Shown: positions 1 through 10,009 of the stretch, one piece after another
Position numbering within the stretch: the stretch's first letter is position 1
How the letters are laid out: every line of letters starts with the position of its first letter
Assembly: GCA_016861205.1 (NCBI GenBank)
Contig: BOKX01000001.1
Span: forward strand, 136,539 to 200,538
Direction: 5' to 3'
DNA: 64,000 nt
Source: Patescibacteria group bacterium
Lineage (GTDB): Bacteria; Patescibacteriota; Microgenomatia; UBA1400; PJMF01
Position numbers and translations under genes: made by a program
Notes under the pieces: model-generated
Database searches by the model: none
Told to the model about the DNA's origin: nothing
The model's input: the letters and a program-made list of their open reading frames with translations, nothing else

Positions 1-3000
1 TCGGCTTCTTCAGCATAGAACTCGGATAGGTCGGCGCCATTGGTCAGGTTTTTGATGTAGACCAGTTTTTCACCCGACAGTTTTTCCACCAACCGCAGCG
101 CTTTGGTCATGTCAGCGTTGATGGCTAGACCTCCCCGTTCTGAGTAGAAAGACCAAGCCAGGTCTTCGCTTTTGCCAGTCTCGATTTGGGAGAAGTTGTG
201 CGGTGACAAAGTGGTGACATTACCAGCTTCATCACGGACTTGGAGTTCGTGACTACCCGTCACGTCCACGGCAAAGAGCTGGACGCCGTCGGTGATGCTG
301 GTGGAAGGCGCGGTGGAACCGGCGATGGCCAGAGCTTTGGCGGCGGAGGTGCCAAAGGTGGTGGTGCCGATGCCGACGTTGCCTCCATCCGCAATCGCGA
401 ACACACTTGTGCTGCCGTCCTGAATATCGACGATAAGGGCGGCCCCGCCTAAGTGATTGATCTCAAATGGAGTAGCAGAACTGTTGCTAGAAATCAGATC
501 GAATGTTGATGAAGAAAGCATAAGTCTACTTGTTGAGCTGGTATAAATATCTAACGAGGTGCCGGGATTGGTAGTTCCAATGCCCAGATTTCCACCATTC
601 AAGTATGAGGCCCCGTTGCCGTCGAGCAATAAACTAGTTCCGTGAATGCTGTTAGCGCCAATTTCCATAGCGTAATCCTGGATGTCGGAGTCTGAGACAT
701 CAATGCCAATTTGGATACCAAAAGAGCTAGCCCCTGGAGTAACAGATGATATTTTCAAGCCTGCATCGCTGACTTCTGCAGTATTTTGATTGTCGATCAA
801 TAGCAAAGCGCTCATGCCCTTGTCACCAGCTGTGGTGTGTTGCAGGTTCATTAATACACCTGTATTCAAAGTGTCTGTTGAGTATCCACTAAATGATATG
901 CCAGGGACTGTGGAACTCGAGGAGATAGCGCTGGAAACATGCAACTTGGAGGTGGGGTTGGTAGTTCCTACTCCCACATTTCCTGACGATGCGATAACCA
1001 TCCTAGGATCAGTTGGGCCAAATGGTGTAAAGAATGCTGTATTGTAACTACTATTGTAGTACGGTTGAATCCAATTCTGGCCGTTATGGAAGATGTTCGC
1101 GCCCGCACCTTGCAGGTAGAGGTCTCCCTCTTGTCCCGCATAAATGCCTGCTGAGGTACCAGAGACCCTGATGTCACCGTGAACAGTTAGCAATGATGAT
1201 GGACTTGTGGTCCCGATACCCAAGTTACCTCCATTGGTTAAGACTAACTTTGTAGCTCCACTCGCGCTAGCACTCAAAATATTCCCCCCCAAAGTTTGGT
1301 TGACTGTGAAGGCATCATTAGCTCCGTAGCCGCCGTTGACGTGGAGAAGGGCTGTGGCAGTGGTAGTACCAATAGATATTTGGCCCCCACTGCTGATCCT
1401 CATCCGTTCATAACCTGAGGTTTGAGCATTGCCAGTAGTGAATGTCATGTAGCCAGCGATATCGCCACTTACTAATTGCAGTGCGGCAGTGTCTGTATAA
1501 ACAACACCAGTGTTGGCCCAGCCCGGGACAGTGGTCATTCCAGAAGACACAGCCTGCATTGATATCACTTTACTACTGGCTGTCTCGGCAGAAATTCCAG
1601 CTCTTCCATTGGTGCCACTAGTAGTATTTTTCACCAAAGCTATTGTTGGTGCATTTTGGTTCGATTCGACATGGAGGAGCTGCCCTGGAACAGTGGTGCC
1701 AATTCCTACGTACCCACTACTATCAATTCTGACTTTCTCGCCTGCATTTACCGTCAATCGCAAACTATTTTCACCGTGAGAATATGTAATACCACCTACA
1801 TCCTCATCGCCGCTGTCCCCTAGAAAGAGAGATGAATACCCGGCACTCGTCGTACCACCACGCAAATACAACTCGGCACGACCTGTTGTTCCTCCGGCCA
1901 AAACCTTAACTATGGCGTTGTTATCGTTGTGACCAGAACTATCAAACCGGACCAGTTCGCTGCCCGTGCCGTCAGTTGGGCCATATACATGAAGTTTGAC
2001 AGCTGGGCTTGATGTCCCAATTCCTAGATATCCAGATGCATTCACAGCTGACAAAACATTACTATTACTATCTTGCCACTCTTGCATATTGGCTGTATTT
2101 GATGCCGGTGGCCTTAAGACAAGCAATTTTGCCGTGGTTTTGCTGGTGGTAATGCGGACGATTTCAGATGCCTCAGTGCCGGCACTGTTAACTAACAAGG
2201 CAGTTGTACTCACAGGGACAGCGCCATATCCGATCGCTGTGTTACGCCACTGGCTTTTGATAATGCCAACTCCATCGTCTGATGACACTTGAAAACTGAA
2301 ATCGGTTTGATTGGGAGGAATTACTTGCAACATTGCACCAGGTATAGCGGTGCCGATTCCAACCCTGCCTCCATTACTGATCACAAACTTGGTCGCTCCA
2401 CTCGCACTGGCACTCAAGATATTGCCAGACAGTGTTTGATTAACGGTCAAAGCATCGTTGGCACCATAGCCACCATTGACGTGGAGCTTGGCAGTTGCAG
2501 TTTGTGTTGTGGTCCCAATGCCAACGTTATTTGTACTCGTATCGACTCGCATTATTTCTGTCACACCCCCTCCATAGAAAACTACGTCCCTTCCTGTAGC
2601 TGGGGTAAAGAATAAATCAGTTGTTCCGTAAGTCGAAATTTGTGCAATAGAATTTGTAGCATCTGTACCAAATCGAGAAACTAAAGCACCATTTTTGTAC
2701 AGATAAAAATTGCCACTGACATTAGTATCACTATTTACTTGAATGTTGCCATTTTTTACTTCTAACTTTTGACCTGGATCTGTCGTCCCAATCCCAAAAT
2801 TTCCAGTAGCTCTGTCAACCAAAAAGCCCGTCAAAGTTGGGTTAGCATCATTGATATCATTTCCAATATTCAGTAAGAAGTCATTATTAGCATCTACTCC
2901 CATTTTCCAAGTGTAGGTGGGGCCTGAGTACAGCACTGCTGCGCCACCGGCTTGATTGTTACCAATTGAGATCATACTTCGCTGCGGACTAACTCCACTG

Positions 3001-9710: not shown

Positions 9711-10009
9711 ACAGTGGGAGTTGAGGAAGCGTCTTTGCTGCTGACCTGGCTTTCAAGGCCAGTGAAAATCTCAACTTTGTTGTCAAAACAACGTAGCACA
9801 CCTTGTTGAATTTGAAACTCTTTATTGCCACCGTTTACCAGGTTGAGTGTGACTTGATCTCGGATCAAGGAAATAAAGTGGGCGTGATTAGGCAAGATGT
9901 CGAAGGGACCTTGGGAGTTTTGAGATGACAAGGCTGCGACCTCTCCAGAAAAAACCAACCCGTGTTGGTCACGAAACTCGACGTGAAACGTGGCGTTGAA
10001 CTCAGCCAT
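9707..10009 (-). CDS. atpC: F1 epsilon-like subunit, N-terminal beta-sandwich only
   Basis: VFSGEVAAL...[16 protein letters not shown]...[13 protein letters not shown]. No C-terminal helical hairpin; convergent with atpD. Confidence 0.85.

Follow-up and report, generated by a model that had tools for sequence, protein, structure and literature searches.

A second F1-like ATPase with a carboxylate-free, chaperone-tipped c-like protein beside giant fibre genes in Patescibacteria

The retention of an F-type ATP synthase by bacteria that have no respiratory chain is a stated puzzle for the candidate phyla radiation (CPR), as set out in PMC11665869 and PMC10633639. A stretch of 64,000 nucleotides from a Patescibacteria group bacterium (GenBank assembly GCA_016861205.1, contig BOKX01000001.1, positions 136,539 to 200,538; hereafter the window) raises the related question of what an F1-like gene set does beside a giant fibre gene. 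The genome that carries the window is 1.18 Mb long and 97% complete. The operon encodes C, a rotor-like fusion protein with a c-like membrane hairpin, followed by alpha-, gamma- and beta-like subunits and a convergent epsilon. An initial annotation of the window described this set as a stator-less motor and not an ATP synthase, divergently paired with the fibre gene across 190 bp. All five genes lie where it placed them and the shared divergent region is confirmed; the fibre, seen there only in part, proves to be 1849 amino acids long. The re-use of an ATP synthase chassis at this locus is real, conserved, widespread and new as a type. It is very likely an ion-uncoupled ATPase that serves a surface structure. 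A narrower reading, about evenly balanced on the sequences and structural models, is that of a second F-type ATPase without subunit a, which would burn ATP and, through a ring of carboxylate-free, chaperone-tipped C subunits, assemble or deploy giant trimeric surface fibres.

The same genome contains a complete canonical ATP synthase. In genome-wide profile searches the subunits a, b, delta and c (with its Glu) give one above-cut-off match each, and all of these lie in one canonical operon about 60 kb past the window, to which the single subunit a of the genome belongs. The claim that the window holds no a, b or delta gene thus stands. The profile searches recover two alpha/beta pairs plus Rho; the window alpha and beta are 33% and 40% identical, respectively, to the canonical alpha and beta of the genome. 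Since the complete canonical operon sits elsewhere, the window set is a second, divergent F1 and not the only one of the genome. The canonical delta is only 74 amino acids long and corresponds to the C-terminal part of the oligomycin sensitivity-conferring protein (G000 C1:261679-261903).

The family to which the window set belongs was followed in 97 loci, taken from this genome, from 16 among 60 relatives and from the best 80 of the 398 matches confirmed in a genome scan; some genomes are included twice. The usual gene order is C, b-like, delta-like, alpha, gamma, beta and epsilon. Inverted epsilon genes, split operons and gene losses are also seen. The b-like (b') and delta-like (delta') genes stand between C and alpha in 77 of the 84 loci with alpha downstream of C, and alpha directly follows C, without them, in seven loci, this genome among them. 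The delta-like gene matches PF00213 in 21 of 29 cases tested; a single membrane helix stands at the N terminus of the b-like gene product in 73/78, and its matches to b profiles are weak. Consequently, the description of the system as stator-less does not hold for the family: the absence is a local loss in this genome. No match to subunit a was found among the proteins of the fusion loci, and the operon holds no other multi-spanning membrane gene. The catalytic equipment is complete. The window beta has the motifs GGAGLGKT and GERTRE and the window alpha has SVTRVG, as the initial annotation reported, and the conservation extends to the whole family: all 76 betas keep the Walker A Lys/Thr, the catalytic Glu, both arginines and the Walker B Asp, and the arginine finger is kept in 82/82 alphas. 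In the 15 rows listed, the epsilons extend no further than the beta-sandwich, and most lengths are below 115 amino acids.

The C protein is the most unusual component. Its AlphaFold2 model (predicted local distance difference test score, pLDDT, of 90.3) contains an N-terminal helix, a beta domain (residues 36-164), a linker helix and a hairpin (residues 196-271). The modelled hairpin superposes on c-rings with Z 10.7 and a root-mean-square deviation (rmsd) of 1.4 A over 75 residues. Sequence searches with the hairpin give weak matches, to c chains only; the c subunit of the same genome is matched by phmmer with E 0.004, and Leu255 is then aligned to the c Glu. The R, N and P of the GRNP loop are kept in all 97 C homologues. 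On the other hand, the core of helix 2 is free of Asp and Glu in all 95 homologues with the GRNP motif. In this form C, a rotor-type subunit, is unable to carry protons by the known route. A polar residue, Asn250, lies five positions before the Glu site and is kept in 91/97. The verdict that the set is not an ATP synthase is in line with these data: a full canonical operon exists elsewhere, subunit a and the c carboxylate are missing across the family, and the betas occupy their own side of the tree described below.

The ectodomain of C is a phage tail-spike chaperone fold that also occurs in CPR fibres, a point that the initial annotation missed. Among 48,161 chains, its best match is 3gqh_A residues 692-854 (Z 14.7, rmsd 2.2 A, 117 residues), that is, the cleaved C-terminal autochaperone domain D4 of phi29 gp12 (Peptidase_G2, PF11962), and the next matches are capsid cement proteins of the beta-tulip type. 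D4 is described as a tandem beta-tulip that directs tail-spike trimerisation (10.1101/216911) and is released by auto-proteolysis (PMC4690869). The C ectodomain begins at the very point where the cleaved D4 begins. The same domain is found within giant CPR fibres, including a 4477-amino-acid fibre of this genome. The start of D4 carries a DxAE motif, the Glu of which is presumably catalytic, in 12/12 aligned fibre rows (a 13th match, in L104, has no clear motif and was left out) and in the phi29 fragment, whereas the first 90 residues hold such a motif in only 1 of the 97 C proteins. Because the start points agree and DxAE is nearly absent, C looks like a fibre chaperone that is already cleaved; it is alike to D4 in fold, but where D4 is severed from a tail spike, the C ectodomain stays attached to a c-like hairpin.

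The machine does not depend on a canonical Fo. Full-length C occurs in 58 of 401 Patescibacteria genomes sampled across the phylum (about one in seven, ~14%), after three of 61 matches that lay in giant proteins only were dropped. Named homologues come from Pacebacteria, Roizmanbacteria, Levybacteria and WWE3, and a distant subfamily with the same operon and motifs is probably from Saccharimonadia, as judged from gene content. Subunit a is present in 40 of 63 carriers, and these 40 also pair the divergent beta with a canonical one. The remaining 23 have no subunit a genome-wide; the divergent beta is the sole beta of 22 of them, and the last has no beta. Three of the carriers without a are single-contig assemblies (G050, G396 and G250). 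The machine thus exists in cells with no Fo to borrow. Genomes with two C paralogues also occur (G425 at L134, G145, G223 and G388).

In an unrooted tree of 76 beta rows, the 45 divergent betas fall on one side of a branch with a Shimodaira-Hasegawa-like approximate likelihood ratio (SH-aLRT) support of 95, or 100 in a 39-row tree. They are separate from the canonical CPR betas, from six other F-type betas and from three N-type betas. The approximately unbiased (AU) test, however, does not reject a grouping of the divergent with the canonical CPR betas (p 0.18). The Type 3 mycoplasma lineage is represented by one sequence on a branch of 2.7, the place of which is unsure, and Type 2 is not represented. 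Profile scores place the window set below the cut-offs of the named families. Alpha and beta reach 367 against 484 bits and 439 against 463 bits for atpA and atpD, 340 against 751 and 400 against 752 bits for the N-ATPase models TIGR03324 and TIGR03305, and, for MMOB1660/1670 and MSC_0619/0618, 346 against 600, 340 against 850, 270 against 520 and 344 against 570 bits. Both score far under the FliI/SctN cut-offs. The divergent betas of 19/62 relatives exceed the atpD cut-off.

The partner of the operon appears to be the giant fibre. Three tandem fibre paralogues of 1849, 1578 and 1779 amino acids lie beside the operon in this genome. The fibre frame within the window is 1648 amino acids long when read from the ATG at 4946, and 1849 amino acids in whole from the GTG at 4967; it has one N-terminal hydrophobic anchor (residues 15-33). 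Across the family, a fibre-like gene stands directly upstream of C in 57 of the 88 loci with at least 1 kb upstream, divergently in 53 of these. Of 38 well-covered loci, 32 have one at a distance of up to about 10 kb. The other neighbours of the operon vary. In this chromosome, 8% of the sequence lies within 10 kb of a fibre-like gene. A control on 20-kb loci finds a fibre in 14/19 further C loci and in 0/20 canonical atp loci, with a reference set made from the fibres of this genome and giants beside fusions, which favours the C loci. A membrane-proximal base domain of the fibre gives 49 matches in 46 loci and is confined, in this genome, to the three adjoining fibres. It is present in 20/58 carriers against 1/343 non-carriers of the phylum sample, a contrast whose p value is inflated by kin that are not independent; 13/51 carriers have it after the seven genomes that supplied rows of the model are dropped. 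In the mixed families f15, f29, f49 and f84, the base domain and C mark the same genomes. The linkage of the fusion set to giant fibre genes, which the initial annotation put forward for testing, is borne out across the phylum. The model of the base domain is an extended monomer (predicted template modelling score, pTM, of 0.41), and its Foldseek search returned no match at E <= 0.001, a wider search not being made.

Contigs of another strain match the locus from 4377 on and diverge before it: the fibre retains its first ~197 residues and its body is swapped. This suggests a fibre with a constant base and a variable shaft. Other fibres differ in their first domain or position. In 5/25 cases by motif, one of them confirmed by Pfam, giant fibres beside C begin with a MerR/HTH_17 DNA-binding domain (L039:1097-1996 and others), and the 4477-amino-acid fibre of this genome begins with an integrase SAM-like domain. 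A fibre gene for 1431 amino acids sits between beta and epsilon in G013 (L020:4997+). At L146 (G250 C1:~179200 onward), an open frame of 11,716 codons with nine base-domain matches stands beside the operon. In the distant subfamily (L128, L129, L133 and L136-L138), a gene for ~330 amino acids on the opposite strand adjoins the operon and has the same C-terminal domain as the fibres.

These components may be joined in the following way. The alpha3beta3 head would hydrolyse ATP and turn gamma and epsilon. In canonical enzymes the C-terminal helices of epsilon brake hydrolysis, and the window epsilon is without them. The conserved GRNP loop would dock gamma-epsilon on a ring of C subunits, much as happens on a c-ring. 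With no ion path, the work would leave the cell as torque or as a conformational cycle in the ring. The D4-like domains, tethered to the membrane and without cleavage, would engage the fibre near the membrane and aid its trimerisation, the release of its chaperone or its placement. Release of D4 from phi29 gp12 reportedly needs ATP; if so, a cytoplasmic motor would supply what the phage takes from cytoplasmic ATP. In most lineages b' and delta' would form the anchored stator, and in this genome the head would have to take its b and delta from the canonical enzyme, find its hold on some other partner or push against drag. The most novel version, namely a third independent re-use of ATP synthase in which F1 spins the carboxylate-free c-ring against a b/delta stator and outward-facing chaperone domains of phage origin wind, release or move the fibres used for host attachment, is tentative and falls somewhat short of even.

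Apart from the limits stated with the counts above, several observations weigh against a motor that assembles or deploys fibres. The D4 domain was not found in the three fibres that adjoin the operon here, and it occurs in only 6/25 nearby fibre frames from 17 loci, of which 5/25 are cut by the end of the locus. Fibres with D4 are also present in genomes where no C was found, and can therefore fold without C. No fibre lies within about 10 kb in 6/38 well-covered loci, and the base domain was not matched in 38/58 carriers, among them all 14 members of family f71. This genome and six other loci are without b'/delta', and profiles of these two genes, run on this genome, matched only the canonical b and delta; with the stator genes lost, the rotor would do little work. 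A link between the loss of the stator and fibres without D4 was considered and dropped: L048 has a D4 fibre in spite of lacking b'/delta', and the D4-less fibres of G035 and G015 go together with b'/delta'.

The same machine can be read in other ways. A motor that moves finished fibres by spinning, sweeping or retracting them, for host probing, attachment or surface motility as in the gliding motor of Mycoplasma mobile, is unlikely yet the foremost of these alternatives. The near confinement of the membrane-proximal base to motor-bearing genomes would fit it, b' and delta' would provide the stator for sustained torque, and a gene for BPG-independent phosphoglycerate mutase (iPGM) inserted in the operon at six loci bears a loose resemblance to the kinase of the M. 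mobile motor (MMOB4530, presumably a phosphoglycerate kinase). The ectodomain, however, has the fold of a folding chaperone, which points to assembly; a self-anchored fibre would have to be part of the ring to spin with it, and 7/84 loci have lost the stator genes. Pili of the chaperone type are a rather improbable alternative client. According to Troman et al. (PMC13278184), ATP synthase genes and a tail-fibre-like gene adjoin the pam operon across the CPR and are read as a coupling to ATP production; the text available does not mention a missing a or an altered c. These components are probably the same operon as the one described here, given the distant loci beside pilin-, chaperone- and tail-fibre-like genes, and the motor might then power the assembly or retraction of Pam pili and not of giant fibres. 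In the distant subfamily the operon does stand beside pilin- and chaperone-like genes, and one C gene of G425 is found among them, the other lying beyond epsilon. Against this, a Pam-like chaperone is present in 23/58 carriers and 175/343 non-carriers (p 0.12, with G208 counted among the non-carriers with a match), so that there is no co-occurrence at the genome level and the Pam pilus is rejected as an obligate partner; the two pam-like clusters of this genome are more than 500 kb from the operon. Pam-like genes were assigned by description and neighbourhood and not by comparison with named Pam proteins.

A ring that serves as an export pore, through which F1 threads the giant fibre in the manner of flagellar and type III export ATPases, is improbable. 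F1, b/delta and gamma are described as homologous to FliI, FliH and FliJ, and the lumen of the ring, left free without subunit a, leads to the chaperone domain. The retained gamma and epsilon would nevertheless cap this ring, the fibre carries a hydrophobic anchor of its own at the N terminus, like Sec substrates, and the alpha and beta scores far under the export ATPase cut-offs point elsewhere. It is very improbable that the set is still an ion pump or synthase, either as an alternative F1 head for the canonical Fo or with an unrecognised a and a different ion site. A canonical Fo is also found in 40/63 carriers and in this genome, b' and delta' are kept, and the conserved Asn250 is polar; ProAD, which counts only sets with a, mentions 20 F- or N-type sets with a carboxylate-free c, unnamed (PMC11738941). 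The 23/63 carriers without any subunit a, the operon with no further multi-spanning membrane protein and the missing carboxylate in 95/95 C proteins speak against ion transport. The idea of a decaying, functionless duplicate of the synthase operon that rides a variable surface-gene island is hardly credible: the distribution is patchy (58/401), the branches are long, and genes are lost, inverted or split, but the catalytic residues are invariant over 76-82 sequences, the frames are intact and the gene order is kept across several classes of the phylum.

Among known rotary ATPases, the closest parallel is found in mycoplasmas, the F1-like ATPases of which serve surface machines (PMC3369863, 10.64898/2025.12.04.692339, 10.1101/2021.04.06.438750). 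As described there, Type 3 (MSC_0618-0624, partner of MIB-MIP) and the Type 2 gliding ATPase (MMOB1660/1670) are likewise extra, fast-evolving alpha/beta/gamma/epsilon sets beside a normal synthase; they have no subunit a, belong to host-dependent bacteria with small genomes and tie ATP hydrolysis to a surface machine. Their seven-gene clusters include three X0 proteins, with 3 and 12 membrane helices, which are reported to resemble no known protein, whereas the membrane part of the CPR set is a c-derived hairpin with a phage chaperone fold and its operon has no 12-helix protein. The CPR set also differs in keeping b-like and delta-like genes in canonical order and in having a giant fibre as partner. 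With canonical F1Fo (atpBEFHAGDC) it has in common the order c-b-delta-alpha-gamma-beta-epsilon, the catalytic residues, the GRNP loop and the fold of the c hairpin; it differs by the missing a and c carboxylate, the C ectodomain, the short epsilon and a beta that is only ~40% identical. The N-ATPase (atpDCQRBEFAG) is likewise a second, accessory rotary ATPase and a neighbour in the unrooted beta tree, where long-branch attraction is possible. As described in PMC11738941, it has subunit a, a c that binds ions, the order beta-epsilon-X-X-a-c-(b/delta)-alpha-gamma and two genes specific to it; the CPR set has none of these.

In the portions available, several papers treat CPR F-ATPases as ordinary (PMC10656485, PMC10633639, PMC11665869, PMC8080830, PMC11383801), and the methods of 10.64898/2026.10.01.756066 collect CPR betas with 'unusual genomic neighborhoods'. 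A literature search found no description of a CPR operon without a and without the c Glu; the supplements of 10.64898/2026.10.01.756066 and of ProAD (with its database) and the figures of PMC13278184 may show it. The set without a is the only F1 found in 22/63 carriers and bears on the puzzle of the ATP synthase in cells that do not respire. Given this and the 19/62 betas above the atpD cut-off, metabolic reconstructions of CPR genomes likely over-count ATP synthases; if the proposed function is true, many annotated CPR 'ATP synthases' would be surface motors. F1-like motors with non-bioenergetic work are described in the available text of PMC3369863 only for mycoplasmas, and the CPR set, in ~14% of the phylum sample, is a separate design with a recognisable rotor and stator. 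With it, an episymbiont would have energy to spend beyond its single membrane, on fibres that probably make contact with the host. If torque does pass through the c-ring onto surface fibres, this would be categorically new and the first case of a c-ring that itself serves as a shaft for torque across the membrane. To judge from the part of PMC13278184 available, the operon is probably present in a cultured CPR parasite.

The features of the locus are collected in Table 1. The layout is secured by contigs of three public runs of one study, probably DNA, which bridge the junctions fibre-C-alpha (4377-6805) and beta-epsilon (8486-10500), so that it is not an artefact of assembly. The epsilon and beta genes overlap by four bases at their ends, on opposite strands. 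Pfam assigns no family to the C fusion or to the three adjoining fibres. A promoter scan of the 190-bp intergenic region gave a single sigma-70-like site (5098-5126), at chance level.

Table 1. Features of the operon and of the adjoining fibre gene (positions within the window)
Feature	Position	Strand	Pfam
Giant fibre gene with membrane anchor (the 5' part, 1655 of its 1849 codons); the first of the three paralogues in tandem	1..4967	-	
Fibre base domain, membrane-proximal, conserved (residues 74-225)	4293..4748	-	
Divergent intergenic region, 190 bp, common to fibre and motor genes	4947..5136		
C, rotor-like fusion, 271 amino acids: N-terminal signal/hydrophobic helix, ectodomain, linker helix, c-like hairpin	5137..5952	+	
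C ectodomain (residues 36-164), phi29 gp12 D4 fold	5242..5628	+	
C hairpin, c-subunit-like (residues 196-271), GRNP loop, Leu255 in the position of the Glu that binds ions	5722..5949	+	
Alpha-like F1 subunit, Walker A GDQKAGKT, arginine finger SVTRVG	5973..7415 (other start 5946)	+	PF00006, PF00306
Gamma-like central stalk	7403..8293	+	PF00231
Beta-like catalytic subunit, catalytic residues all intact	8319..9710 (alternative start 8301)	+	PF00006
Epsilon-like subunit, beta-sandwich only, without C-terminal helices, inverted relative to the operon	9707..10009	-	PF02823 (N-domain only)

Some further observations concern the surroundings of the operon. The iPGM gene lies between C and b' at its six loci, including L023:17026-18708, and was confirmed by Pfam on one of them. 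Pam-like chaperone matches are found in 198/401 genomes of the phylum sample. In this genome the pam-like pilin/chaperone clusters are located at G000 C1:961502-968025 and C1:675145-679331, one of them directly upstream of the 4477-amino-acid D4 fibre; a search of solved structures with a pilin-like neighbour gave no match. Just upstream of epsilon, a tRNA-Arg(TCG) gene is placed on the minus strand (10160-10234), and two partial repeats of its end and flank (10040-10234) look like an integration scar or a local duplication.

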